From a virus (lineage: Duplodnaviria; Caudoviricetes): a stretch of DNA of 64,000 nucleotides. A program made the translations under genes and the position numbers. The stretch lies in the IMG/VR virus record IMGVR_UViG_3300035520_001075, positions 64,001-128,000 of that record; one strand, written 5' to 3'. Each line of letters opens with the position of its first letter. The stretch's first letter is position 1. The notes beneath the pieces were generated by a model. The model saw only the letters and a list, made by a program, of their open reading frames with translations, had not been told where the DNA came from and made no database searches. Positions 4,560 through 61,814 of the stretch are shown in pieces.

Positions 4560-6904
4560 TTAAAATGAAACATCAATAATTTCCATCTCATCTGCTAATA
4601 TCTGCGGCTTTCTCTGGCCGCCCCATTCATTTATATTTGCTCTACCAGCAATCGTAATCATTAAATCATCACTAATATTATCAAGCATTTTAATTATTTC
4701 TTCTGCTTTAAATTTTATATAAGTAATTCCATTGTAAATAAGTCTTATAGTATCATGATTTTTACCAATTACAGAAATTTCATTTTTATTAATCTGAATG
4801 TTTTTTATAATAATAATTGGCTCATCATTACCTTGCGACCATAGGGCTTTTCCTTTATCCATTTCCTCAATTAAAGTGGATAATGCAGGATAGTTTCCGT
4901 TAACAACAAAATCAGCTTCATAGAATCCTTCATTGAAATTGATATCCGCCAATTCATAATTAGCATAATTAGTTAACTTATCAATATTAGAAATTTTAAC
5001 TGATTGCCCAAAAGCTTGAGAATGTCCTTCTGCAAAATCCATATAGCCACTATCTAAAAGAAACTGTCTAAAGTCCTGTAATTCGCTCCCATTGCGGCCG
5101 CGGCCTGAGCCTTTTAAAAATCCATCTGGACTTGTTCTGCCAAGCAGCACTGGCTTCTTATATTTAGCACTAACTCCCATTGCTATTAATCCTGTCAATG
5201 AATTAGGAACATCTAATTCATCAGCATTGAGAATTAATATTTTATTTTCATCTAAGCAATTTTCAAGAATTTGAATATCAAGTAATTCCATTGCTTTTTC
5301 TTTTTCTCGATTTTGTTTTGATTTTGCATTTACGCAATTTCTTACACTTTGGACGCTAACTGTTTCAAGTAGTCCTGATTCTCCTCTTTTTGTAGATGGA
5401 ATTTCTTTTGTGCCATTAATAAAAGATTCAAAAAGTTTTTCTTTTTCATTCATTGTTCCCACTCTTATTAAAGCATTAATAAGTGGGGTTAGATAAAATG
5501 CCACTCCTGTTGGTGTTAGCGGCCCAGTGCCTAATGAATAGGATTGTTTTTCAATTAAATCTTTTAGGAATTGATTATTGATGTGATTTAAACCATACTG
5601 GCAAATATAACGATTTTCAAGCGTTGTTAAGTAGCACATATCGCTTATTCAAGTACCCCTAAATTTCTTTAGGGCTTTGACTATATTTTACAATTAATAA
5701 TTGTACATCTCTTTCGGTTCTCATTAGCTTCGTTTCCTAAAACTAAAATACGTATTAATAGTATTCCTACTCCCCAGCTTTCCAACCTAAGGGATAGTCG
5801 ATACAGGTTAAATGTTTTTGTACATTTAAAAGAGAAAAAAACATTCATTCCCACGGTATTAGCATATTTTTCAACTTAGCCTTCACCGTTAGCCATTTTA
5901 AATGACTCTTATTAATAAAATAAGTAAAGATGTATTAGCACAATACTCTTATGCCTAATGCCACTAAATCTAAATACTTATCTGCGGCATTACCCAAATT
6001 AAATTGCTCATCACAATATTGAAGAAATTTATAAACAACTCCAACACCGCTTAGCTCTTTATTAGGATAGTTCTCAGATAATTGATTATTAATTACAACT
6101 GCATTTTCACTATAATGCGTTGTAAGATGGTGGTCTTCTACTAAAATATCATATCCTAAATCTTTGAGTATCTGATGCTCTTCAAAATCATTACTGGAAG
6201 AATCGGGGCAGACAATTAAATCACATATTTTTCCATTAGTAAATTCGTTCATAATCGTTGAAAGACCATGGGCTTTTGCTTCTGGGATATGATATTTAAT
6301 TTCTACATTAGGATATTTTTCTTTTAGATTATCATTAAAATAGTTAATAAAGATTGATGAAGAAGTGAATCCGTCAACCATTTATACCCTGCATTTCTGC
6401 ATATTTAAAAAGGGGATTAGACTATATCTTTTTAATCTTCTATTTCGAGAAAAACTCTACTCTACTTACACTTTCTGCTTTCGATAGTCGTTGAACATTC
6501 TACTCATTAGAGTTAGCTTTGCTGCGGATTATCCAATTCTTAATGATTTTACTATACCTTAGTCATTACCCTTGCCACTATATTATTACTAATATAGTTT
6601 AGTTATTAAGACTCTAAGGACGTTCCCGCAATTTAAAGGATTTTATTTTATGATTGAAACCTTGACTGAATTAATCACAATCAATAACAAAATATATTGT
6701 ACTATCATTATCTAAATGCTTTTTAAATAAACTAAAGCCTTCTTCCATATTATCTAATAAAGTTGGCTCTAATAAAAAACTTTTCTTAGGATTTGTAAAA
6801 TTCTCATAACTTTCATTAGAAGAGGTAATGATTTCTCTATCAATTAATAAATTCCTAAGAAAGTCGCTATTTATCTCTGTCTTAGTCTTTCTTACATACT
6901 TCAT
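4560..6904 (-). CDS. recJ: RecJ-like DHH ssDNA exonuclease, spliced: join(6904-6674, 6378-5951, 5649-4560), about 582 aa
   Basis: Splicing restores DCD|VDG and DLVALGI|ISDM. EDHH, KGSGRG and EGHSQAFG motifs present. Confidence 0.88.
5650..5950 (-). mobile_element. Group I intron 2 in recJ (301 nt, no ORF)
   Basis: U|...G boundaries; GUAUCGACUA and AAUAUAGUC elements; frame restored. Confidence 0.88.
6379..6673 (-). mobile_element. Group I intron 1 in recJ (295 nt, no ORF)
   Basis: 5' exon ends in U and intron ends in G. Core elements GUUCAACGACUA and AAGAUAUAGUC. IGS can pair with both exons. Frame restored. Confidence 0.9.
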
Positions 6905-11795: not shown

Positions 11796-13013
11796 TTAGA
11801 ATAATTCCTTTATCAAGATAAGAGTTTCTTTTAGCTTGTCAATATCTTCTGGCTTAATTTCTGAAAACTTTGTTGGTTTTCCAAAAACTTCTGCTAAAAT
11901 TCTCTGAGCCTCCTCTATCTTTTCATTTACAACAGCTTTATTCCATAATTCTTTTGCTTCTGTCATTAATTCGTCAAAATCCTGAACTAAATATGGATTT
12001 TTATCTTCTGAACTTTCACCGCCGCTATGAGCAACTTCTTCATCAATTGCGTCATGAATAGCATTAACAAAAGCATCATAATCCAATTCAATTTTTGGTG
12101 CTATATATTTAAAACGAGATTTACAAAGGAAACGCTCATCTCCCCTAAAGAACATATAACGTTTTCTTTCAATCTTATCTCCAATTTCAGTTGAGATTTC
12201 TCTTATATAACCAATTATATCAACCATTTTATTAATTAAATTAAATGGTCGATTCGGAAGAGCAGGAATTATTTTTGAGTATTCCTGACCTTTATCATCA
12301 GTGTAGGTTTTTTCTGTTTCATGAGAAATAAATACTATACCATAACCAGCATAAGTTAAATCTCTAAAAGGAGTTATGAAATTATCATCAAGCATCTTAT
12401 ATCCACCGCCATATGCCGCAATATCTCGTACTTGCTCAACTCCTGCTTGAGAACAAGTCCATTTCTCACAAAGCTTAAAAGCTTCATCAACAGTATCAAT
12501 AACTAATACGTTGAATTTTTCCTGCAATTCTGGCTTTTTAATTAACTGAGAAGCCATCTGTCGCCAATCCTGCCATGTTTTAACTGGCTGGACATAGATA
12601 TTATTTAAGGCGTTTGTCCTTTCTACCGTTCCTTTCGGAATACTTTAACACCCCTTAAGGGTCGGAGTAGACTATATCTTCTTCATTTTATTAATGAAGC
12701 GTAATATTTCAAAATAATTAATATTTTTACTTCCTAATGGAATAGTCGTTGAACCTTTCACTGGTTAAGTGATTTGGCTGCTGATTACCATATTAATTAA
12801 TTTAGGCTTTCCAGCAATTAATTACGTTATTCAATATATATTACTATATAAGGGAGCTACCAATTAACCCTGCTCGAATCCGCATATAAGTGCTTTGTCG
12901 AACTTCGATGCGAATGTTGTTTTTCCGCATCCAGGCTGTCCATAAATAAGAGAAAACTTCCCTCTTAAATCTCTACTAATTTTCTGTGGCTCTAAATTAA
13001 GTAAATCTATCAT
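11796..13013 (-). CDS. Phage AAA NTP-binding protein (AAA_24/Sak4-like), spliced: join(13013-12867, 12617-11796), about 322 aa
   Basis: Exon 1 has Walker A GQPGCGKT; junction FEQG|TNAL; exon 2 has Walker B LVIDT; next to SSB. Confidence 0.82.
12618..12866 (-). mobile_element. Group I intron in AAA ATPase gene (249 nt, no ORF)
   Basis: GGU|UAA...G boundaries; GUUCAACGACUA and AAGAUAUAGUC; frame restored. Confidence 0.9.
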
Positions 13014-14939: not shown

Positions 14940-17900
14940 TCACTCCTTTATTAAATCAATAGCAAAATCTCCCTCACCTAAATCAATACCCTTAACTCCA
15001 ACGGCTGTTCTTGATAAAGGTCTTAATTCAGAAGTTGAAAATTTAATGCATTTCTTATTTACTATAATAATTATATCACAATCTGTTGAAATAGCCAAGC
15101 ACTTTATTATTTTATCATTGTCTTTTACATCAGATATTCGCTTACCTTTAATTCCTCGATTACAAGTTGGAAAATCATTAAGACTTGCTTTTTTAATTAT
15201 TCCTTCTTTTGAGAGGGTTATTAGATATTTGTCTGTTTCTTCAACTAAATGAGCATCAATTATAAAATCGTTCGTAGCCAAATTCATTGCTTTTACACCA
15301 GCGGCCACTCTGCCAATAGCATTAATTTCTGTTGAGTTAATTATTATATAGTTGCCATTATTAGATAATATTCCCATTCGTTCGTTATCTAAAAATAGAA
15401 CTTTTACAACTTCATCATCTTCTTTGAGATTAATTGCTTTGATAGACTTTCCTCTACGAATATTATATTCTTTCGCCTCGGTTTTCTTTATTAAGCCTTT
15501 TTTAGTTAGGAATACATAATATTTCTTAGAGTCTTTCTTATTAAATGATGTAATTGCAGTTGGGCGTTCATCACCATTAAAGTCAAATAATTGATTTATA
15601 TTAATTCTACCATTAATTGGCAAATCGTCTATTGAAAGATGATACATTTGACCTTTATTGGAGAATACTAATAGAGAATTAAAGTTGTCATCTCTAATTG
15701 TTTTAATAATTGCTTCATTATTAGCTAACTTAATTTTCTTACCTGAGCCGCCACGTTTTGAAGTTAAAAGAGTTGTAGTTTCTTGGGTGTAGATATTACC
15801 AAGATTTGTATAGTGGATTAAGAGCTCTTTCTTTTCAATTGGTTCTGCATCTTCTTCTTCGGAAGTAAAGTCGAGATTTATGCATTTGGTTTTTCTTTCA
15901 TCTCCATATTTATTTTTAATTCTTAAAATTTCGTCTATAACAATTTTTTTAAATTTATTCTCATTTGTAAGAATAATATTAATATCATTAATATTATTAT
16001 TCAATTCAGCTCTTTCATCAATTAATTTTTGTAATTCTAAATTAGCAAGTCTTGAAAGTTTTAAATTTAAAATTGCTTGACTTTGCTCTTCTGATAAATT
16101 AAAATTTTCTTGTAATTTTATTTTTGCAAGAGATGTTGAAGGGGATGACTTAATAATTTTAACTACTTCCTCAATATTCTGAATAGCGATAATCAATCCA
16201 TCTACAATATGAAGTCTTTGTTTTAATTTCTTTAAGTCAAATTCATATGATTTTCTAAGGACGTTGCAAAGATGTTCCAAGTATGTTTCCATCATTTCTT
16301 TCCATGTAAAACACTTAGGATATTTCCCATCCGCGAGCATATTCATATTGATTCCATAGCTACCCTGTAGTAAAGTGTGCTTATATAATAATTTAGTAAT
16401 TCTGTTTACATTAGCGTTCTTTGATAATTTTATAACTATTTTTACTCCGTCAAGGTCTGTTCCGTCAAATACGCTTTCAATACCATAAATTTTCCCTTCA
16501 TCTATTGCATTCTGTATAGAAACTGTAGCATTAGAAGAAAATACCATATAAGGAAGATTGGTTGCTATTAATTCATTTGCATCTTCATCATATACCATAT
16601 CTGCTCTAATAATAGCAGCCTTTCCAGTTCCTCTTTTATGACTTTCTTTAACTTCTTCGGAATTAATTATAGTTCCTCCTGTCGGAAAATCAATTGGACA
16701 GTAAATTTCATCAAAATCAATCTCAGGATTATTTAATAATTTTATTAAAGCATCTGAAACCTCATTTAAATTATGAGAAGGAATAGAAGAAGCTAAACTT
16801 ACTCCAATTCCAAAGTTTCCATTCACTAAACTATTTGGAAAAGTTGTTGGGAAATAAGTTGGATATTCTTCTTCTTCCGTATAATTAAGTTTCCATTTAT
16901 CAATAGTTTCCTTTTGTAGCAAATTCGTCATTTCATCTGCAATTTCGCCGCTTCTCATCTCAAGATATCTATCTGCTGCATAATCATTGTTGTGCATTAA
17001 ACTGCCATTATTTCCATGAGTATCAATTAAAGGATAACGCAAAGAAAAGTCTTGACTCATTCTTACAGCATTTCCATAAATACTTGCATCCATATTATTC
17101 CCACATTTCTGTAGGTATCGACTATATCTTATCTATAAAATAGAAATACCCATTTCAGAGAAAATAGTTCTCTTACTCCTTCGTTCCAAGGATAGTCTGT
17201 ACAGGTTTTAATTTATTTCTTTATAGGTTTTTCTTGTTAGCATTTGCCTAAAAGCACTATAAGAGCATTGTATATTATATTTATCATAAAGTATTTTTGA
17301 CTGATGTCCATTATTGTTATACTCTTCTCGATACTGCTTGACTTCATCATCTGAGAATATTCTTCTAGCCCCTTTTTGCTTAAAAACTCTAATTGGATAG
17401 GACATATTCTCGTGCTTATAAGTAATACCATGATTAATTTCAGAAATAGCATTAAAGCAAATATTATATCTTTTAGCTATCTCTCTATCACTTAAAATAT
17501 TTTCTTTTAATAATTTATATATTTCTAATACTTGCTCTTCTGATAACTTTGCCCGAGAAGCTTTTTCTCCTCTGGCAACTTTGCAAACTTTTTTCACCGT
17601 ATTATATAACAAATTTTTATCATATTTATTAATTTCCTCTTGCTCTTTTTCTTCCAGTTCAGAAAGTTTACATTCACAGAGAATTTCAAAAGTAAAATTA
17701 TCAATACCAAAAGTATACATATCATTATATAATTTATTAATTCTTTTATCATTATAAGTTTTACCAAATCTAAAATGATATTCTTTTCTATCTTCTATAT
17801 GAGAAGAGCTTCCTATGTAAACCATATTATTTAAAAGATTAGTTATTTTATAAATTCCAACCATTTTTTCACCTCCTTTATTTTAGTACAAAAAAGAAAT

Positions 17901-41965: not shown

Positions 41966-42068
41966 ACTTTATATTGAAAGTCAAGGTATTGACTTTTAGA
42001 ATAATTTGAGATATAATATAATGAAAAGGTAATACTTTTTAAATTTATAATAGATGAGGTGAAGACAA

Positions 42069-45000
42069 ATGGCAATTAATACAAATGAAGCGGACCAGAA
42101 TAAAAATAAAGATAAGATTACAACTATTTCTGGTGCGACAGAGTATGAAATTAATTCTGAAAAAGAAAAGAATGAAATTAATTCCTTGAGATTTAAGCAA
42201 AGCTATTATGCTTTTTTAGAACTACTTTCTGATTTATATCCAAATGCGTTGGGTGTAAAAATGCTTGGTGTAATTGGTGATAATAGTCTTTTTGATTCAG
42301 ATTCACAGTCGAATTTAGATGCTGAATATTTAGATTGGCTACTTGATGTAGACCACTTTATGAAGGGCGTTAGAAGCGATAGAAATATTTCGCCAGAAAA
42401 ATTATTAAAATTATATCAAACAGCAATAGGGCTTTTCTTTGATTCAGACGATGCCGCACAATACTTACAAGATTTTGGCGATACAAAAGTATCAGATACT
42501 AATGGTGGAAAAGTAATAAAGTATAACGGTAAGTCATATCTTCTTTCAGATATGGAAAGCCGCTATAGTGATATGAAAACGGCGAAAGATACAAGTGCAG
42601 AAAAAGAAGGTAAAGAAAAAAATTATTTTAATATTCCAGCATTAACAGAAATAAATGAAGCTTACACCGCAGTTGCAAAAATGTTTGACTTTAATGGAGA
42701 TAACTTAATAGGCACAGACGATGCCGTAATTGCTCTCAAGTTTTTTGCTATTGACTTAACAGACGCAGAAAGAGCTTCTTCTATAAAAACGTATACTTAT
42801 GATGTTTCTACAATTCAGTCAGCAGGAGGCTTCGATGAGTGGCCAGCTTTAAGTCGTGATGGGTAGGATTTAAAAAATAGTGATGGAAAGAGTTATTGTG
42901 TAATCTCGAAAGGAGAAGGAAAGGTTTATTTTTATAATTCTTCAACATATTATACAGAAGCTTCTGCAAGTAAAATTGCAGAAAAACTTAAAGCGAAAGA
43001 AACTGACTTTAGAAAACTTCAAGCTAAAGAGTATACAACAGGTACATCAGATTCAAATAAGGCTTTAGATAAGAACATATATTCTGCATTAACAAGACTC
43101 TCGTTCCCTACTGGAGGAAAAACTTATAATTCCAGATGGGCAGTATCCTTATTAAGAACAATTAAAAAAATAAATATTCATAATAAGAAATCTTCATCAA
43201 CACCTTATGTTTCCGTAGCTGAATTTGCGGCTTATTTATATCAGAATTCTGACGAATATATAAACTTATTAAAAGATACCAGCAATATTTGGAATGAAAA
43301 TGGTGGAACAGAGGACGAAGAAATTAGCGAAGAAGGTTGGAACGAATCCATAAACAAATTATATGACTTAATTAAAGAATGGTGCTTAACCTATGGATTA
43401 ACAAGTGATTTATATCATGATTCCTTTAAAGATTGGATAGACGGACTAAGAAGAGCAGATGCAAAAGGTACAGAAGCTAATTACTATTTAGACCCAAGGC
43501 CATTAAAGAACGTCTTTGACCAAGTTTATACTCAGGCACGTGCTGATGAGATTAAGATGAATGTAGATAATATGGACTATACTAATCTTACAAAGGCTAT
43601 TGCAGATGAGGTTGCTAATGGAAACGTAAGCACCGATACTTTAAAGGCTGTCGTTAATTTATTAATGCCAGAATATAAAAGAAGAGTTGAAGTAGAAGAT
43701 TTGGATAAAAACTTCTGGGTAATTTCTCAGTTATTAAGTGCTATATTAAGCGTTCTTTTTGGCGATGATAATGGATTACAGGGAATTCTGAAAGGACAAA
43801 TGGCGGAAACAATGGAACTTTGGAATAATGTAAAATATTTATGGAACGTCACCCAAATGTAGGCAAGAATGATTGATAATTTAGCTAAGTCGCTTGAAAT
43901 TTTAAGTGGAGATGTTGACGAAGGCGATGATGCTTTTGAGATTTCTAAAGAAGTTTATCAATATACAGCAAAGGCAACAGATACTTCTAATATTAATTCT
44001 GATGAGTGGACAGGCTGGGCGTTAGATTTAGATGGAGATGATTCAGTTTCTTGGTATGATGCTTGTTTGATTTTAAAACTTTATGCCTGTTGGATTCTTT
44101 ATCACAACGATGAAGATATAACATATACAGATTTAAATGGATATGAGCAAAAAATTTTCCCAAATATTATTAAGGTAACAGAAGGAGAAACCTTTAAGAG
44201 TTATCAAGATTTTATAAATTGGTCTAAAAAAAGTACATGGGGGCTTACTTTAAATTATGTAGAAGAAGGAGAATATAAAGACAGAGCATTAATGATAAAA
44301 TGGAATTTTGATACAAAAACTACAACAAAGGATGGTACTTTACTTGGAACTTGGTTTTATCAAAAGATTTTTTCTAATTATGCCTATCCTTTAGATATCT
44401 AGAGTGGTATGTCATATGAGGAATTGGAGCTTTTCACCGGTGTGGGAGGCCTAACCGATACAGACACTGGAATGCCATTTTTTGGTTTTAATAATAAATA
44501 TTTATTAGAAGATGAAAAAAATGGTCTTACTATTTGTTCTAATGTACGAAACGCATATCTATCTTGTGGCGGAACAGATGACAATGCTACAGATAAAGAA
44601 AAATTTGCTTTCGTATTAAAACATTATGGAATGGATAATCGTTATTTTTCAGGCTTTTCTCAAACCGCCTATTGTGATAATGTATTAGATAAATCTGATA
44701 AGTACATATTTTATTATATTGGAGGTAGAAATTATCAAAGATATGATGGATTAAATACTTACAAAGTGATGTCGGCAATAATACTGAAAATGATGCAGGG
44801 TATAGCCACCTATTTCAAAGGAAGTTCAGACAGGACAGGAATTCTAAACTATGCCTTGTCGTCTATAGCTGGAAATGTTTCTTCCTTGTATTCTGATAAT
44901 GTCAGCTTAGCTCTTCATAGAATAAATTATTATCCAGCAGGTCAAAAAGAAGAATTTGATGGAAATGATATTAATAAGGATATTTATCGAGGAGAAAGAG

Positions 45001-45839
45001 CCTTAATAGTTCAATTTGCGAGTGACAGTACTGAAGAAGAATTAAAAGAGTCTGTAGTAAATTCCGAGCAAGGAATTGGTATTAAAAATACTTATTCAGA
45101 ATGTTTTGGAAAAACCAGCGACGTAAAAGGGATTGGCGGTGCCAGATTAAGAACATCAATAAGCGGATGTGATGTTGCTATATTTTTACAAGACGGAGAC
45201 TATTATAAAGAAAATGACAGTATAAATGAACTTGGTATAAAACTTTATAAAAAATATCTTTTAGTTTGTATGCTATTGGCTACAGAAGGTATCAGTACAG
45301 CAGATTCTCGACTTGCAGTCACCATATTACAAGTATTAAGTCAAAATACTCATTTATCTAATAAAAATTTCTGGAAGACTTTTAAAAACAATCAAAAGAA
45401 TTTTTCTCTGAGTAATCAAAATATGGTAAAAGCGTGTACAATTAGTGGTACAAAATCTGATTTGTCCGATTTAACATATATAATAGCCTTTAACTAGGAA
45501 TATACTATAAACGAATATAAACTAACACTTTATTCGGAAGACGGAAAAACAATTTCACGAATAGAAGGCGAAAATAATAATCCTACTGCAACATATACTT
45601 CAGAAATGTTGTTTGAAACACTGACATATAATGGGAAAAAAATTTATCCAGGCTTTACAGGGGCATTAAATGGAGAATACCCAGAATATATGGTAGGAGG
45701 AGCATATAACTCTCGATATGTTTATGACTATTCATTAAGCGATTTTGCAGAAAAAACAATAGATAATACTTCTGGACAGAAATATAATGAGGCAGAACAC
45801 AAAAGTTTCCATATTGTACAAACATCGTCTAACGGGTGA
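42069..45839 (+). CDS. Large probable virion protein, 4 in-frame TAGs, 1256 aa, two dockerin/EF-hand-like motifs
   Basis: Five track ORFs share one frame and are separated only by TAG (42864, 43860, 44400, 45495); ends at TGA. Confidence 0.75.
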
Positions 45840-45845
45840 TTTAAA

Positions 45846-47348
45846 ATGATAACAAATACATCATCCCTAACCTTTCTCCCATCTGACCTCTCCGATGCAA
45901 CTGCCCAATCTCCATCTCTCACAATCACTCTAAATAATAAAGATTACGAAATAACTAAAACAAAAACCTTAAAAATAGTAGCAACTCTATCAAGCAAATC
46001 TGACCCAAGCATTTCTTATTCCGATTCAAAAACAATCTATCTCAAAGGAATAAGTGAAATTGAAATTGAAGAAGAACTTCCAGAACCGCCAACAGTAATC
46101 AATGGCTCATTCCCAGAAGGCTTTACTTCTGATGACCTTGTAATTATCTATAATACCGATGAATCTTATTCTTCTACCTTAGATATTGATTCTTTAAATA
46201 AGATGGCATTAGATTATATGGCAAACATTGGCAAAGAAGTAGACTCAAATACAATTTACTACCAAAAAGATAGCTCTGGAAGAATTTACGTGCTTGTTAG
46301 AAAAGACGATACAACATCTTATGATAACGACCTAATAACCCTTGAAGATGGAACTTTATGTTATAAAGTCTATATTGACGGCAGTTGTGAAATAGTTGGA
46401 TTCCAAGACAATAGCGGCGGCTCTGATTTCAATCTTGAATTAGGTACTGGTTATTACTATGCGATAGCAAATCAGCTTTACTTATTTAACTGCGTTTCCG
46501 CAAGACTTGTCAATTACAACACGACTCAAACTGGATTCTGGTTAAATGGAGAAACAGAATCAGATATTAAAATGTTCACAGACCAAGAAACTTATAAAAA
46601 TCATGCATATTATCTTGCTGTTGGTAGTGGGGTGACGAAAACTCCACTCCCAGCAATATCATCAGACGAAAACGTGACTCTTTGTTTTACAGCAGGAACA
46701 ATGAGGAAATTAGTTATCTCTGATACAATTGAAACAATTGAATATTTTGCAGATATTGTTAATGCAACAGATGGTATTATTATTTCTTCTTCCGTTAAGA
46801 AAATAGGGGACTATGCTTTTTATGGAAGCTCAATAAGCGGACAGATAACAATCAACTCGCCGCAATTAGAAGAAATAGGACGCTATGCTTTTGCTAATAT
46901 GACAAATTTATCATTGCTTAATATTAATGCTGACGACAATGGATATTGTATTTTACCAAAGAATTTAAAAACAATTAAAGAATATGCTTTCTATAGAAGT
47001 TCAGGATTAAATAAAATAAGTTTTTCAAGTTGTGAGAAATTAACAACGGTTGAAAAAGAAGCCTTCTCGTCTTGTTCTAATTTGAGATATGTTAAATACT
47101 TAGAATCTCAAGTAGAACCAGACAATATAAGCTCAACTCAACTTTTGTACTTGCCGCCAGACCGTGGAACAGGCGGTAATTATGCTCCAAGAAAAACAAC
47201 AGATTCTTCAAACAACACAGTAATTACAGCTTTATATGCTTATGATTATACAAGTGAGTATGCTTATCCAAACACAACATAGGACGAAATTGAAAACAGT
47301 ACCTATACTTTTTTAAATTGTTCTAATATAGAATGGATTTGTGAATAA
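45846..47348 (+). CDS. BspA-type leucine-rich repeat (LRR_5) protein; TAG readthrough extends it to 500 aa
   Basis: IGDYAFY, IGRYAFA, IKEYAFY, VEKEAFSSC repeats; TAG at 47280 is followed by another FLNCSNI-type segment. Confidence 0.75.
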
Positions 47349-56740: not shown

Positions 56741-57043
56741 ATGGGTGATGAAAAAGTTTTTCGTGTTGTAAAATCAAAATTCATGATGAAAATAACTGAG
56801 CTTGAAGAAGTTGAAGCTAAAGATGAGAATGGTGAAACTACGAAAGAATTAAAAGTAATCAATTCTAAATGGATTCCAATGAGGGGTAAAGAATTTTCTG
56901 AGTCGATGAAAGAAGACTATGACAGAGGAATCAAGCATCAGATTACAATTGTAAAAGATGAACCAGATAAGTTCCAGTTCAATCATATCTACATTCACGC
57001 TCTTGGAAAGAAAGCTTGGACTTATATTAAGAAAGAAGATTAA
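56741..57043 (+). CDS. Hypothetical protein
   Basis: ORF with promoter and GGAGG RBS. Confidence 0.6.
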   Translation: MGDEKVFRVVKSKFMMKITELEEVEAKDENGETTKELKVINSKWIPMRGKEFSESMKEDYDRGIKHQITIVKDEPDKFQFNHIYIHALGKKAWTYIKKED

Positions 57044-57115
57044 AAAGTAAACTACTTTACTTTTTAAGAAAGTTATGGTATAATAATTATAGAAAAGTTA
57101 AAGGAGGGAAAGCAA

Positions 57116-57241
57116 ATGGGAAAAGAAACAACATATGAAGTGGTTTGTGAAAAGTGTGGCAAAGTTTTTGAAGCTCATGATGAGAATTGTGTGCTTTGTA
57201 ATGATTGCTGGGAAAAAATAATTGAAGATGAAGGAAAGTAA
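57116..57241 (+). CDS. Small Zn-ribbon protein (41 aa)
   Basis: GGAGG RBS; CEKC...CNDC. Confidence 0.55.
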   Translation: MGKETTYEVVCEKCGKVFEAHDENCVLCNDCWEKIIEDEGK

Positions 57242-57318
57242 ACTACTTTACTTTTTAAGAAAAATATGATATAATTATTATAGTAAAGATAAAAAAGAGT
57301 TTTATCTTTACTTTAGAT

Positions 57319-57393
57319 TTGGGATTAGTTTAGTCAGTAAAACGCAAGACTTTGGATCTTGAATGGTGTGAGCGTAGCATACATCCCAAGCCA
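57319..57393 (+). tRNA. tRNA-Gln(UUG) with atypical D and T loops
   Basis: TTGGGAT/ATCCCAA acceptor, G73, CCA; CAAGA-CTTTGGA-TCTTG anticodon arm. Confidence 0.82.
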
Positions 57394-57449
57394 CTAAAAA
57401 TTTTTCTTAAAGAAAGAAGCTAAATTAAATTAGCGTATACTTAATATAT

Positions 57450-57589
57450 TGGCAGGTAGACGAATTGGTAAAGTCCTCGGTCGGCTTATAAAAAGTTTTG
57501 GCAGGGGCAGTACCTGCATAAGCCACCATCTAAAACCGAAGACGGAAGGGAGACCTTCCATAGGAGTTCGAAGCTCCTCCTGCCAGCCA
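57450..57589 (+). tRNA. Amber suppressor tRNA (CUA) interrupted by a 46-nt intervening sequence at 57483-57528
   Basis: TGGCAGG/CCTGCCA-G-CCA acceptor; D arm; spliced anticodon arm TCGGT-CTCTAAA-ACCGA; long variable arm; AGGAG-TTCGAAG-CTCCT T arm. Confidence 0.85.
57483..57528 (+). ncRNA. Nested tRNA-like minihelix inside the suppressor anticodon loop
   Basis: GGCTTAT/ATAAGCC 7-bp stem, GCAGG-GGCAGTA-CCTGC 5-bp arm, ACCA end. Confidence 0.82.
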
Positions 57590-57616
57590 TAGTACTTTTT
57601 TGAAAGGAGAATTATA

Positions 57617-58276
57617 ATGAGAACATAGAAGTGTAATATTTGTGGAGAAGTTAAACCAATTGAAGATTTTTATTTTCGCAAAGATTTAAACACATACCGA
57701 AAAAATTGTAAAGAATGCCATAACAGAGGTAGGTCTAAGAAAAATAAGAAAGGCGGCTCATGTGGAATTTACAAAATAGTCAACAATATTAATCACAAAG
57801 TTTATATTGGACAGTCAATTAATATTGAAAAAAGAATTGCTAAACACCAAAGTATGGCAAAAAGCGGAGGTGAAATGCCGTTATATTGTGATATTAGAAA
57901 GTATGGTGTTGAAAATTTCTCATTTGAAATTATTGAATTATGTGATAAAGATTCTTTAGATAAAAAAGAAAGAGAATATATAATTCAATATCAAAGTTTA
58001 GTATCTCAAAATGGATATAACATTGATGAAGGTGGACAGAAAGGTCGAAATTATCACCCAGAAAGTGATGGAATGGCTAAATTAAACTGGGACATGGTTC
58101 ATCAAATTAAACAGCAGCTAATAATAGGCACTCCAAAAAGAGAATTAGCTGAACAATTTGGCGTATCAGTTTATGCAATTGATGATATAAATAGAGGTAA
58201 GTCTTGGAAAGAAGACGATTTAATATATCCAATTTATAGTTTTCAAAAACATAAGTCAAACAATCCAATTGTTTGA
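57617..58276 (+). CDS. Zn-finger + GIY-YIG endonuclease with TAG at codon 4, 219 aa
   Basis: AAGGAG RBS; MRT[TAG]KCNICG...CKEC...GIYKIVN...VYIGQS. Confidence 0.8.
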
Positions 58277-58333
58277 CTTCTATAGTAAATTATGATATAA
58301 TTATTATAGAAAGTTAAAAGAAAGGACTTAAAA

Positions 58334-58588
58334 ATGATTATTTCCGTAAAATTTAAAGATAAAAATAAAATCTTTAAAGGTCGTTCATACGATTATAAGC
58401 TTAATAGTGATGAACGAATTCCAAAAGTTGGTTCAATAATACGAATGATGAACAATGACTATTCTTTCCGCTGTAATGGAACAAGAGTTAGAGTTGAAAA
58501 TGTTCGTAAAGAATCAATTGAAGATAGCGGGCTTGAAGAAATTCGTTATTTGGAATCTTCATTAGAAGAGCCAAGCTTTACTTTATAA
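58334..58588 (+). CDS. Hypothetical protein
   Basis: ORF with promoter and RBS. Confidence 0.55.
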   Translation: MIISVKFKDKNKIFKGRSYDYKLNSDERIPKVGSIIRMMNNDYSFRCNGTRVRVENVRKESIEDSGLEEIRYLESSLEEPSFTL

Positions 58589-58967
58589 CAAAATTGTGGT
58601 ATAATTATTATAGTAAGTGAGGAAAGCAAAATGATTGAATTTCTTTACTTCGCCGCAAAAGCATTGATTATTATATTTGGCATGAAATATTTGTCGAATG
58701 TGTTGATAGCTTTGTTTACTGGCGAAAAATTTAAGTCTAAAATTTTTAACACTTCTCATTTTAAAGATGAGGATTAACTAAGCTAAAAAGAGTAGTTAGT
58801 GTGATTTCCTTTGATTACGCATTCCTTTGTTAGTCTACATTTGTATTCCTCCAAGATATATACATGACACCATCGTACTAACTACTCTTTATATAAATAG
58901 AACAATAGTAGTTTGTTGTAAATATTGTTCGCTCACCGTTGGCGACTAATAAATATACGGTTTAAAT

Positions 58968-59035
58968 GCCATTATAGTGTAGTGGAAAGCACGGGAAATA
59001 TTTCTATTGTGCCAGTTCGATTCTGGCTAATGGCA
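58968..59035 (+). tRNA. tRNA-like element lacking an anticodon loop
   Basis: GCCATTA/TAATGGC acceptor; D arm with TGG; GCCAG-TTCGATT-CTGGC T arm; anticodon arm reduced to GGAAATATTTCT; no CCA. Confidence 0.65.
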
Positions 59036-59399
59036 AACTTAGGTCGGAGTCGCAGAAATTCCTTACCCTGTAGATAAAAGTTAAAAATATTCGGCGGCAA
59101 AATTTAGGAAGTTTTTATTTTGCTTCAAAGAAAAACACAAAGCTTTTGGTTTTTTGGTGATTAGTACTGGTTCACCTTTGCAGGTTCCTTAAAAAAATAA
59201 AAAACAGTACTACGGTGCGTATTCTGTATCAAATGCGTGAGTTTAGTTTCAACTCGGAGGGAAACTACTGAGGACGCTCAGGGTTATAGTACTATAATTT
59301 TCTCTAAAGATTCAGGTTTAGCTTCTGCAGAAGCCCTATCTAATCTTTAGAACTTTTAGTGTCGTGGCGAAAGGGCACTATAAAACTTCTTCGCCTCAT

Positions 59400-59473
59400 G
59401 ACTCATTGGTCAAGTGGTTAAGACGCTATCATTTATGATAGAATCACGGGTTCGTTCCCCGTATGAGTTTCCA
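59400..59473 (+). tRNA. tRNA-Glu-like element with a 6-nt anticodon loop
   Basis: GACTCAT/ATGAGTT acceptor + CCA; TGGTCAAGTGGTTAAGAC D arm; CTATC-ATTTAT-GATAG anticodon arm. Confidence 0.65.
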
Positions 59474-59527
59474 AACCCTTTTAAAATAGGGAACTTAGAA
59501 ATTAAAGTAAAGGAAGGTATAATACAA

Positions 59528-59653
59528 ATGGAAAAAGAAAGAGCAATTAAGGATTTACAGATTAGAATTGATATTTTAAGAGCTAAAGACCCAGTTAGTA
59601 ATGCGAGAATTATTAAGAAGTTAGAAAGAAAAATTAGAAGCCTTGAAGGTTGA
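59528..59653 (+). CDS. Small hypothetical protein (41 aa)
   Basis: GGAAGG RBS; the longer track ORF overlaps the tRNA-like element. Confidence 0.5.
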   Translation: MEKERAIKDLQIRIDILRAKDPVSNARIIKKLERKIRSLEG

Positions 59654-59793
59654 GAAAGGAGAAGAAGTCAAGAATTGAGCTAAAAATTCTTGACTCTTTT
59701 TTTTATTTTAGATTATGGGGCGGACGATATTTGACTTTTAACTTGGGTTATGATATAATTATTATAGTAAGTTAAGAGAGGAGAAAAAAAGTT

Positions 59794-60861
59794 ATGAAAC
59801 TTATTGAGTATATAGTAAATCATAAGGATTGGAAAAATGAATTACAGAAGCCGCCATATTCTTTGTCTATAAAAGAAAAAGGCTCATTAATTATGTTTAA
59901 TTATACTGTTGATTCTATTCCTTCTGAAATCGTTAACGAAGCAAGGGGTTTAATTCTTGAAATTGGAAATAAGATTAATGTAATTCGTTATGGCTTTTAT
60001 CGCTTCTATAACTATGTTGAAGAAGGGGCGGCGGCTTTAAACATGAAGAAAGTCTTTGCAACAGAGAAAATAGATGGGTCAGTTATAATGCTTTATTATT
60101 ATAAAGGAAACTGGTATATTTCAACTCGTAATACTTTCGATGCTTTCGATGCTCCACTTGGAAATTCAGAAAGAACTTTTGGAGATTTAGCTATTGAAGC
60201 AATGAAATCTCAGGGGATTATTCCTTCTCAGCTTTTGCCGCAGAACACTTATGTTTTTGAGTTAGTATCTCCAGAATATCAGCACGTTGTTAATTATGAG
60301 GATACCAAGCTTTATTTCTTAATGGCAAGAAATAATAATACTTATAAAGAAGTCGACGTTAAAACTGACTGGTTAAGACCTCGCCGCATTGAAGTTTCTT
60401 CTTATGAGCAGATTATTAACTATGTTTCTACTTTTGATGGAAAAGAATTTGAGGGCGTTGTGCTTCAGGATAATTATAATAATAGAGTTAAGGTTAAGAA
60501 CTTAAAGTGGTTAAAGCTTCATAAACTACATAATAATGGAAATTTAACTGTAGAGGCAGCTCTTAACTTAGTTGATATGGGTGAGATGGACGAATATTTA
60601 GCCTATTTCCCAGAGAAAAAAGACTTTGTTAATAGAATTCTATTTTGGAAGCAGACATCAATGTCTTATGCCTTATCTCTTGATATGATAGACTTGAAAG
60701 AAAATTATCCTGATAGAAAAGATTATGCAGAAAAAGTGCTCAATTCCTACGCACCTCATGAGCAGTTTTTAATGTTTAAAGCATATGATAATAGAGCTTA
60801 TGAGTATATGACTTCACTATCTAATAAAAAATTAGCAGAATTATATGCAATTGAGCATTGA
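59794..60861 (+). CDS. T4 Rnl1-like ATP-dependent RNA ligase
   Basis: EARGLI, RFYNY, EKIDGS, FELVSP, EGVV, RVKVK; adjacent to Pnk. Confidence 0.85.
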   Translation: MKLIEYIVNHKDWKNELQKPPYSLSIKEKGSLIMFNYTVDSIPSEIVNEARGLILEIGNKINVIRYGFYRFYNYVEEGAAALNMKKVFATEKIDGSVIMLYYYKGNWYISTRNTFDAFDAPLGNSERTFGDLAIEAMKSQGIIPSQLLPQNTYVFELVSPEYQHVVNYEDTKLYFLMARNNNTYKEVDVKTDWLRPRRIEVSSYEQIINYVSTFDGKEFEGVVLQDNYNNRVKVKNLKWLKLHKLHNNGNLTVEAALNLVDMGEMDEYLAYFPEKKDFVNRILFWKQTSMSYALSLDMIDLKENYPDRKDYAEKVLNSYAPHEQFLMFKAYDNRAYEYMTSLSNKKLAELYAIEH

Positions 60862-60929
60862 ACAATATTTGACTTTTATCTCGGATTATGATATAATTAT
60901 TATAGTAAATGAGAAAGAGAGGTTTATTT

Positions 60930-61814
60930 ATGGCTACATTATTTTTAATGATAGGATTGCCTTACTCAGGAAAATCAACACTCGCAGAATCCTACAAAAA
61001 TTATAATAGAACAATGGTAATTTCTTCTGATGAAATTCGTAAGGAATTATTCGGAGACGCAGGCGACCAGTCTAATAACGAGCTTGTTTTTAAAGAATTC
61101 CATACACGAGTTGTCAATGGTTTGAAAATGGGATATAATGTTTTTGCAGATGCAACTAATTTAAATCGTAAGAAGAGAATGGCTTTCTTGGGCTCAATGC
61201 CAAAAGGAACTTTTAAAGTTGGAGTTATGATGGCAACACCTTTAGAGTTAATTTTTGAGCGTATGGAGAAGAGAGAAAGAAGAGTTTCTAAAGAAGTCGT
61301 TATGAGAATGCTGAAACAATTTCAGCCGCCGACTGAAGGAGAGGGCTTTGACTTAATTAATATCGAATTAAATCGCCCTTTTCATTCTTTAGAAAATTAC
61401 TTAGAATTAAATTTAATTCCTCATGATAACCCTCATCACAAGCTTGATGTTGCTGAACATATGTTGGCGACTTCTAACTTAATTAAAGAGTGGTTGGAGG
61501 GAGATTCTTACGACAAAAGAAAAAACAATTTAATGACCGCCGCACGTTATCATGATATTGGGAAATACTTGGTAAAGGAATTTGATGACAAAGGAATTGC
61601 TCATTACTACTATCATGCCAACGTGTCTGCTTACTTATACTTAACTGCAGAGCGTTTCTCTCGTCAGGAAGACGTAATCTATAGAGCTAACTTAATTTAC
61701 GAGCACATGACACCTTTTAACTCGAACTTCCCACCAAAGAGAATGTCGATTTATCCAAAAGAATTTATTGAAGACTTATTACTTTTACATAAGGCAGATG
61801 TTCAGTCTGCCTAA
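60930..61814 (+). CDS. Polynucleotide kinase (AAA_33) fused to an HD phosphohydrolase
   Basis: GLPYSGKST, SSDEIR, DATN; C-terminal H...HDIGK...H...D. Confidence 0.85.
   Translation: MATLFLMIGLPYSGKSTLAESYKNYNRTMVISSDEIRKELFGDAGDQSNNELVFKEFHTRVVNGLKMGYNVFADATNLNRKKRMAFLGSMPKGTFKVGVMMATPLELIFERMEKRERRVSKEVVMRMLKQFQPPTEGEGFDLINIELNRPFHSLENYLELNLIPHDNPHHKLDVAEHMLATSNLIKEWLEGDSYDKRKNNLMTAARYHDIGKYLVKEFDDKGIAHYYYHANVSAYLYLTAERFSRQEDVIYRANLIYEHMTPFNSNFPPKRMSIYPKEFIEDLLLLHKADVQSA

Follow-up and report, generated by a model that had tools for sequence, protein, structure and literature searches.

A CCA-ended, tRNA-shaped insert in the sole predicted amber suppressor tRNA gene of a TAG-recoded phage

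A 140-nucleotide (nt) segment of phage DNA appears to encode an amber suppressor transfer RNA (tRNA) whose anticodon loop is split by a 46-nt insert that itself has the shape of the top half of a tRNA. The segment occupies positions 57450-57589 (plus strand) of the 64,000-nt stretch analysed here (hereafter, the window), which spans bases 64001-128000 of a virus record that is complete at 157,483 bp and has terminal repeats (IMG/VR record IMGVR_UViG_3300035520_001075, denoted G000). It reads as a tRNA with a long variable arm, in which the canonical anticodon loop C-U-CUA-A-A forms only once positions 57483-57528 are removed. We consider the chances about even that these 46 bases are a tRNA-shaped mini-intron, located in the only amber suppressor of the phage, that is removed through cleavage by RNase P, a second cut after the CCA and ligation.

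The split suppressor gene

The 5' exon (57450-57482, plus strand) contains the acceptor strand TGGCAGG, a 3-bp D stem, the anticodon stem strand TCGGT and C32. The 3' exon (57529-57589, plus strand) starts with U33 (57529), followed by the anticodon CTA (57530-57532), A37, A38 and the stem strand ACCGA, and continues with the long variable arm, a T arm with the canonical TTCGAAG loop, the acceptor strand CCTGCCA, G73 and an encoded CCA. The insert between them (57483-57528, plus strand), delineated by its fold, by an ARAGORN intron call and by family comparison and covariation, consists of a 7-bp acceptor stem (57483-57489 paired with 57518-57524), an 11-nt linker (57490-57500), a T-like arm of 5 bp (57501-57505 paired with 57513-57517) closed by the 7-nt loop GGCAGTA (57506-57512), and a terminal ACCA (57525-57528).

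The initial annotation had described a complete tRNA with a 46-nt insert in its anticodon loop, the restoration of the 7-nt loop C-U-CUA-A-A upon removal of the insert, and the tRNA top-half geometry of the insert, and had suggested running gene prediction with and without it. All of this is confirmed. ARAGORN misses the split gene when run without introns, reports a tRNA(cta) with a 46-nt intron when introns are allowed, and calls a 94-nt tRNA(cta) after positions 57483-57528 are deleted by hand. The cloverleaf features expected of an amber suppressor tRNA (U33, a purine at position 37, stems and discriminator) are found together only after this deletion, and the spliced junction predicted for the 94-nt tRNA is TCGGTC|TCTAAAACCGA (GGTC|TCTAAAA). 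Folded alone, the insert adopts exactly the minihelix shape (-15.7 kcal/mol, 82% of the ensemble, z -1.98); this energy is mildly unusual, and the comparative evidence is stronger. The whole precursor folds as a cloverleaf with an extra helix (-53.1 kcal/mol, z -3.8), and none of 200 shuffled sequences folds as well. Judging from its sequence, this is a genuine amber suppressor tRNA gene split by a tRNA top-half minihelix.

The 5' acceptor strand of the tRNA, TGGCAGG (57450-57456), recurs inside the insert at 57499-57505, spanning the end of the linker and the arm, and this copy could pair with the 3' acceptor strand of the tRNA instead. The recurrence is absent from the other family members checked and may be due to chance, with an expectation of about 0.2%.

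The source genome is a metagenome assembly, and an assembly artefact had been named at the outset as a finding that would refute the annotation. We regard an artefact or chimera as so improbable as to be negligible. The 140-nt gene is unchanged in three other IMG/VR contigs, all from other samples, whose divergence from the window amounts to 1.4% of sites across 14 kb and is nil in 57292-57699, and homologous inserts occur in many other assemblies. Moreover, a BLAST search among the fetched loci (see below) identified an uninterrupted orthologue in a related phage (L022, 209-302), 94 nt long, with the loop CCCTAAA and an ARAGORN call of tRNA(cta). Its first 29 nt are identical to those of the window gene, and a compensating change from G:C to A:U is found in the anticodon stem. 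Because L022 holds the same tRNA without the insert, the insertion can be placed exactly between positions 32 and 33, as originally proposed. An exact search of IMG/VR returned no uninterrupted copy with an identical anticodon arm.

Several lines of evidence indicate that TAG is a sense codon in G000 and that the phage depends on a CUA tRNA. Once TAG is read as sense, the longest open frame of the genome grows from 889 to 1956 amino acids, and several long frames are interrupted by TAG alone, for example 42063-47282, with TAG at four internal codons. ARAGORN detects three tRNAs in the whole genome, and the split gene is the only one with the anticodon CUA. The split suppressor probably inserts glutamine: TAG positions aligned to relatives correspond to Q in 19 cases, to Y in 3, and to S and L in 2 each. 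The acceptor end carries U1:A72, G2:C71, G3:C70 and G73, which we take to be the identity set of Escherichia coli GlnRS. However, the long variable arm is unusual for tRNA-Gln and typical of Ser, Leu or Tyr tRNAs, and the L022 orthologue has A73.

A family of tRNA-shaped inserts with a common boundary rule

Altogether, we identified 16 distinct CCA-ended, tRNA-shaped inserts of 45-143 nt in the anticodon loops of phage tRNAs, namely the window insert and fifteen others. Phages related through the Rnl1-type RNA ligase encoded near the split gene were fetched and scanned with ARAGORN with introns allowed, with no condition imposed on intron shape. This yielded the window insert and seven other distinct short inserts, for example in Leu and "Met" tRNAs, and all eight share a 7-bp stem, a 5-bp arm closed by a loop of 7 nt, and NCCA. 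A further four inserts, distributed over three contigs, came from a scan of IMG/VR for a loop pattern, independent of Rnl1; one of the four lies within a tRNA-Glu and, at 77 nt, has nearly the full shape of a tRNA. The loop pattern GGTGCAAWTCC...ACCA retrieved no new nested elements. A search of IMG/VR with the 17-mer of the window's arm returned only the same gene and free-standing tRNAs; with no second insertion site, there is no direct sign that the window's copy is mobile.

The family is defined by a start at base 1 of a 7-bp acceptor-like stem, a stacked 5-bp arm with a 7-nt loop and an NCCA end, all of which are present in the window insert. Sizes grade from nearly full tRNA shapes (77, 66 and 64 nt) to a bare acceptor/T minihelix with NCCA. 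The elements were aligned by their fixed-length ends with a script, given that MAFFT left the 5' acceptor strands unaligned. Across the 16 elements, 186 of 192 stem positions are paired and both sides have changed in 11 of the 12 pairs, in agreement with the covariation that the initial annotation had expected of homologous inserts, with the reservation that these pairing statistics involve some circularity where elements were found with a pairing descriptor, though not in the ARAGORN-derived subset. Position 73 is occupied by A in 14 of the 16 elements. CCA was required in the search, and the subset found without this requirement also ends in NCCA. The loop is conserved as N-K-C-A-N-N-N, mostly GGCAGYA. 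The closest parallel to the window insert is a 47-nt insert in the tRNA-Leu(UAA) of four phages, which also lies between C32 and U33 and shares the GGCAGTA loop and ACCA; its stems differ from those of the window insert, yet are mutually complementary. Other members of the family interrupt ordinary Leu, Ile, Lys, Gln and Glu tRNAs.

A fixed position between 32 and 33, anticipated in the initial annotation, does not hold: the 16 elements occupy four positions in the loop, 32/33, 34/35, 35/36 and 36/37. What is constant is the relation of the insert to its own ends. Each 7-bp plus 5-bp minihelix with NCCA was cut out, and ARAGORN was asked for an ordinary tRNA across the junction. Excision from acceptor base 1 through the A of NCCA restores a 7-nt loop in every family member, and among 7987 loose candidates tested by excision, a junction-spanning tRNA was obtained for family members only. 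Some inserts as placed by ARAGORN end in AC and are followed by an exon starting with CA; reading the end as ACCA shifts both junctions by two bases and still leaves a loop of 7 nt.

The consequences of this rule are most apparent in two related complete genomes, G001 and G003, which are clearly TAG-recoded and in which ARAGORN finds no CUA tRNA. The end rule turns the ARAGORN Leu(CAA) call of G001 and the Ser(CGA) call of G003 into the sole CUA tRNAs of these genomes, so that under this rule the only CUA tRNA in each of the three TAG-recoded genomes G000, G001 and G003 is a split gene. The loop of the G001 product, CTCT|AAA, coincides with CTCTAAA of the uninterrupted orthologues in L045 and L048 (89% and 85% full-length identity, respectively), both of which show a compensating stem change relative to G001. 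Further junction matches to uninterrupted orthologues were obtained for the window gene against L022 and for the Leu(UAA) gene against L036 and L025.

Taken together, these comparisons indicate that the insert's own structure sets where it starts and stops, at acceptor base 1 and at the A of CCA, irrespective of its place in the host loop. Since the positions vary while the ends stay fixed to the structure of the insert, recognition would read the insert rather than the exon context. The variable position, which had been set beforehand as a refutation, thus argues instead for intron-autonomous recognition. Ends fixed in this way suggest the outcome expected from tRNA end-processing enzymes, which is the opposite of the logic of bulge-helix-bulge and group I introns.

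The same comparisons bear on the simplest contrary view, namely, that the insert is a selfish element that inactivated the gene, such that the split tRNA never matures and TAG is read by a host suppressor or through near-cognate reading. Relatives carry uninterrupted suppressors, and the presence of aberrant tRNA-like genes in the same cluster (58968-59035 and 59400-59473) makes tRNA gene decay conceivable. Nevertheless, we find inactivation decidedly improbable: in three independent near-complete TAG-recoded genomes the sole CUA tRNA is split, with different tRNA bodies and insert positions; the exons still form perfect cloverleaves and show compensating stem changes when compared with their orthologues; the split-tRNA region has accumulated no substitutions among the sister contigs, compared with 1.4% elsewhere; and removal of the inserts at their precise ends yields a 7-nt loop with U33 and A37 in every case.

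Several elements extend or border on the family. The 143-nt member, in G001 (139097-139315; L041 1686-1904), has a 108-nt linker and resides in a tRNA identified as Met(CAU) by ARAGORN and as Lys(UUU) under the end rule. In L036, a 45-nt family element (17352-17396; loop TGCAAAT, ACCA) lies outside any recognisable tRNA and may be a stand-alone or relic copy. A separate class, found in L026 (10378-10519) and L029 (20213-20355), is represented by a complete tRNA-like insert of 71 nt, in which the T loop is canonical and CCA is absent; the anticodon of the host tRNA is UUU or UCU depending on the placement of the ends, and the simple end rule yields an 8-nt loop.

Possible routes of excision and sealing

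Under the reading that we favour, the precursor would fold as a cloverleaf with the minihelix projecting from the anticodon loop. Host RNase P would accept the minihelix with its ACCA as a substrate and cut 5' of the first acceptor base, leaving the 5' half with a 3'-OH. A second endonucleolytic cut immediately after the A of CCA, in the manner of a Thermotoga-type tRNase Z, would free the 3' half starting at U33. The halves would be held together by the tRNA body, and the Rnl1-type ligase of the phage would seal the nick in the anticodon loop, with a phage kinase-HD protein joining in if the RNA ends need healing. Every enzymatic step in this scheme is one that we infer.

Both phage proteins invoked here are encoded downstream of the split tRNA on the plus strand. 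The gene at 59794-60861, 2.2 kb 3' of it, encodes an ATP-dependent RNA ligase of the T4 Rnl1 family: the identical protein has Pfam matches to PF09511 and PF09414 and belongs to the family by its profile, and 1089 homologues are found at E<=0.001. The gene at 60909-61814, 3.3 kb 3' of the split tRNA, encodes a polynucleotide-kinase-like P-loop domain (Pfam AAA_33, 1.1e-21) fused to an HD phosphohydrolase (Pfam HD, 1.4e-07). Neither gene contains an in-frame TAG, and the ligase frame is open under code 11. The ligase is a candidate sealing enzyme, and the kinase-HD protein is a candidate RNA end-healing enzyme. In a 174-kb relative (L012, 12531-14541), a Thg1-like gene (3'-5' nucleotide addition, tRNA 5'-end repair) is located between the Rnl1 ligase and kinase-HD genes.

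Several properties of the family are consistent with this route. Bacterial RNase P RNA pairs with RCCA, and the acceptor/T minihelix is a known minimal substrate of RNase P. Because the minimal conserved unit of the family coincides with this minimal substrate, we count it in favour of RNase P. For the second cut, there is a precedent in the T. maritima tRNase Z, which is reported to cut exactly after A76 (PMC1540738). Cuts of the RNase P and RNase Z types leave a 3'-OH and a 5'-phosphate, so an Rnl1 ligase could join the halves directly. A tRNA nicked in the anticodon loop is a natural substrate of Rnl1. An ATP-dependent RNA ligase is encoded in all four near-complete insert-bearing genomes tested, including G006, which was found without the ligase as bait.

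A number of observations weigh against this route. The link between inserts and Rnl1 suffers from sampling bias, as Rnl1 served to fetch most of the loci, and large phages commonly encode RNA ligases for tRNA repair. In bacteria, most RNase Z enzymes are blocked by CCA. No RNase Z-like protein (Lactamase_B_2) or CCA-adding enzyme was found in G000, G001, G003, G006 or G008, and no RtcB in G001, G003, G005 or G006. In the window gene, the proposed RNase P site lies just one unpaired base, C32, away from the anticodon stem, which makes a poor RNase P leader, and the T-like loop GGCAGUA lacks the canonical UUCRA. Finally, the end rule is not universal because the 71-nt CCA-less class of L026 and L029 gives no 7-nt loop under a simple RNase P/RNase Z cut.

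Some of these points would be accommodated by removal at the RNA level through a dedicated route, involving either an unrecognised phage endonuclease that reads the minihelix or RNA-intrinsic cleavage and ligation, an explanation that we consider unlikely, though it deserves attention. The conserved loop N-K-C-A-N-N-N departs from the canonical T loop and could be a protein recognition site, no known after-CCA nuclease was found in the searched phage genomes, many small neighbouring open reading frames have no Pfam family, and the 71-nt class misfits the simple pair of cuts. Conversely, the loop is also present in ordinary free-standing phage tRNAs and in permuted transfer-messenger RNAs (tmRNAs), hence is not intron-specific; the series from 77, 66 and 64 nt down to an acceptor/T minihelix with NCCA represents what tRNA end-processing enzymes need; and there is no match to a ribozyme family in Rfam.

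The split gene belongs to a small tRNA cluster. Upstream of it lies an uninterrupted tRNA-Gln(UUG) (57319-57393, plus strand; ARAGORN; Rfam tRNA, 43 bits) with the non-canonical T loop AGCGUAG, and the pair is preceded by a promoter-like site, TTTACT-17-TGnTATAAT (57247-57275, plus strand), detected by consensus scan only. Downstream, 27 nt 3' of the split tRNA, a free-standing homing endonuclease gene of the GIY-YIG type (SegE-like; 57617-58276, plus strand; identified by translation, Pfam PF01541, E 7e-10) is preceded by a good ribosome-binding site, and its codon 4 is an in-frame TAG (57626-57628). A consensus scan found no terminator-like site on the plus strand between the promoter-like site and the endonuclease gene. 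From ribosome-binding sites and sigma-70-like promoters, the hosts of the insert-bearing phages appear to be bacterial; no close relative of G000 was found among the nearest cultured phages. Of the two aberrant tRNA-like genes of the cluster, both on the plus strand, the one at 58968-59035 is tRNA-shaped (Rfam tRNA, 48.9 bits), has an anticodon arm closed by about 4 nt and no anticodon, and is not called by ARAGORN. The one at 59400-59473 has a 6-nt anticodon loop and an encoded CCA and is reported as 'tRNA-??? (tt)', the same kind of ARAGORN call as was obtained in the unrelated phage contig L124 (about 4713-4786).

This gene arrangement raises the question of whether the insert has a role. 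Collaborative homing with the adjacent GIY-YIG gene was considered and rejected as a specific link: homologues also adjoin the uninterrupted suppressors of L045 and L048, and G000 carries five copies. The GIY-YIG homologues directly 3' of split tRNAs in the window (57617-58276) and in L020 (742-1488) are 39% identical; those directly 3' of uninterrupted suppressors are located at 2919-3188 in L045 and 1285-1554 in L048. In several phages, then, such genes immediately follow suppressor or Leu tRNAs, both split and intact. As an addition compatible with the other readings, the insert could serve as a timer, whereby TAG-containing late genes and the endonuclease are translated only after the TAG-free ligase and kinase have been made. 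The absence of in-frame TAG from the Rnl1 and kinase-HD genes, the TAG at codon 4 of the endonuclease and the presence of split suppressors in three recoded phages fit such a timer, and recoding has previously been proposed as a brake on late and endonuclease genes (bioRxiv 10.1101/2021.08.26.457843). We nonetheless judge it quite unlikely, given that the close relatives L022, L045 and L048 carry the same suppressors uninterrupted and that the same type of insert occurs in ordinary Leu, Ile, Lys, Gln and Glu tRNAs. Therefore, the insert is more likely to be a passenger element than a dedicated code switch.

Comparison with known systems and implications

The closest precedents come from other large phages. 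In the TAG-recoded Lak megaphages, 'enigmatic' tRNA introns have been reported, one of them with a possible tRNA (Devoto et al. 2019, PMC6784885), and a 2026 survey of jumbo phages noted tRNA introns that 'could encode another tRNA' (PMC13037316). Like the present family, the Lak introns are tRNA-shaped inserts in anticodon loops of phages that use TAG as a sense codon and are identical across samples, and, like the window insert, they have no Rfam family and no known removal route. They differ in being 79-114 nt long, located near position 37/38, with a hairpin leader of about 30 nt, canonical GGTTCGA T loops and no CCA (Table S6, PMC6784885), whereas the window insert is no more than a minihelix of 46 nt, which runs from acceptor base 1 to ACCA and lies within the suppressor itself. 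The boundary rule, the CCA-ended minihelix form and the mechanism are in neither PMC6784885 nor PMC13037316, and our literature search found no description of CCA-ended minihelix introns or of their mechanism. Nested tRNA-like introns in phage tRNAs as such have more precedent than the initial annotation implied. The window insert is distinctive in that it sits in the only amber suppressor, is of minimal size for the family and follows a boundary rule that makes the splicing route testable.

Archaeal and eukaryal bulge-helix-bulge introns are likewise short, protein-dependent introns of the anticodon loop, the removal of which leaves two halves that need a ligase. They rely on pairing between exon and intron, which produces a 4-bp helix flanked by two symmetric bulges of 3 nt each, in which the splice sites lie. 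In the window insert, by contrast, the structure is wholly internal, with the 5' cut abutting the helix and the 3' cut 4 nt past it; in the predicted precursor fold, the 5' junction directly adjoins the helix of the insert itself and the 3' junction is located within an unpaired stretch of 10 nt. This fold, which bears out the earlier statement that no bulge-helix-bulge is present, together with the occurrence of the same type of insert at four loop positions, rules out such an intron.

The group I introns of bacterial and phage tRNAs resemble the present family in occupying several anticodon-loop positions, in hiding tRNA genes from finders, in their patchy distribution among relatives and in their proximity to homing endonuclease genes (Williams 2020, bioRxiv 10.1101/2020.01.27.920355). 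The window insert is not a group I or II intron, as the initial annotation had already concluded: it is only 46 nt long, and the region 57000-59900 has no intron match in Rfam (gathering threshold or E<=1), although the same search detected a group I intron elsewhere in the window (12648-12876, minus strand; RF00028, 75 bits). Group I introns have a conserved catalytic core, P3-P9, and usually exceed 190 nt.

The similarity to the tRNA-like domain of tmRNA without G3:U70, pointed out initially, is also real, and the loop GGCAGUA agrees with the consensus for the T loop of alpha/permuted tmRNA. As in permuted tmRNA precursors, a T arm GG-GGCAGUA-CC is followed by the acceptor 3' strand and ACCA inside a longer transcript; in those precursors, RNA 3' of the internal CCA is removed and RNase P sets a 5' end. 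Unlike in the window insert, where the strand order is normal and the minihelix has C3:G70, the strand order of permuted tmRNA is permuted, its pieces are not re-ligated and G3:U70, the identity pair for alanine, is present. Identification of the insert as a tmRNA tRNA-like domain was therefore rejected: it has C3:G70 and no tmRNA match in ARAGORN or Rfam, and only the T loop GGCAGUA and ACCA are in common. The loop itself is not diagnostic of tmRNA because it is also found in free-standing phage tRNAs; such tRNAs of several isotypes (L233, L234, L235, L239, L244 and others) have the T arm GCAGG-GGCAGTA-CCTGC, identical to that of the insert, and GGCAGUA is, as far as these sequences indicate, a recurrent T-loop variant of phage tRNAs. 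Permuted two-piece tmRNA genes are themselves present in viral contigs (L126 1366-1804, L129 12630-12977, L135, L165, L175 and L214), and their T arm and ACCA match the 3' half of the insert.

The repair of PrrC-nicked tRNA-Lys by T4 Rnl1 and Pnkp offers an analogy for the sealing step, in that an Rnl1-family ligase and a kinase/phosphoesterase are involved, here encoded 2-4 kb from the tRNA. In T4, a host defence nuclease breaks a mature host tRNA, whereas here two programmed cuts in a phage precursor are proposed. A tRNA nicked in its anticodon loop, as Rnl1 naturally repairs, would also be what the ligase encoded at 59794 has to seal here.

With slightly less than even confidence, we propose that these inserts represent a third kind of protein-dependent tRNA splicing in large phages, in which the intron itself would be a minimal tRNA, host end-processing enzymes would cut, the phage ligase would reseal, the sites would be set by the tRNA shape of the intron, and the TAG code switch would depend on the pathway. 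To our knowledge, the tRNA introns of bacteria and their phages are thought to be self-splicing only. The presence of CCA-ended, tRNA-shaped inserts of 45-80 nt in tRNAs that are functional and in some cases indispensable implies that a removal route exists that has yet to be described in bacteria or phages, and with the boundary rule the proposed one can be tested directly by means of RNase P, a 3' nuclease and Rnl1. At the practical level, standard tRNA finders miss such split genes or misread their anticodons, as in the suppressors called Leu(CAA) and Ser(CGA) by ARAGORN, so that surveys of recoded phages reporting 'no suppressor tRNA' may have overlooked split ones. If the proposed route is correct, the Rnl1-type ligases of phages would gain a role beyond the repair of damage inflicted by host defence.

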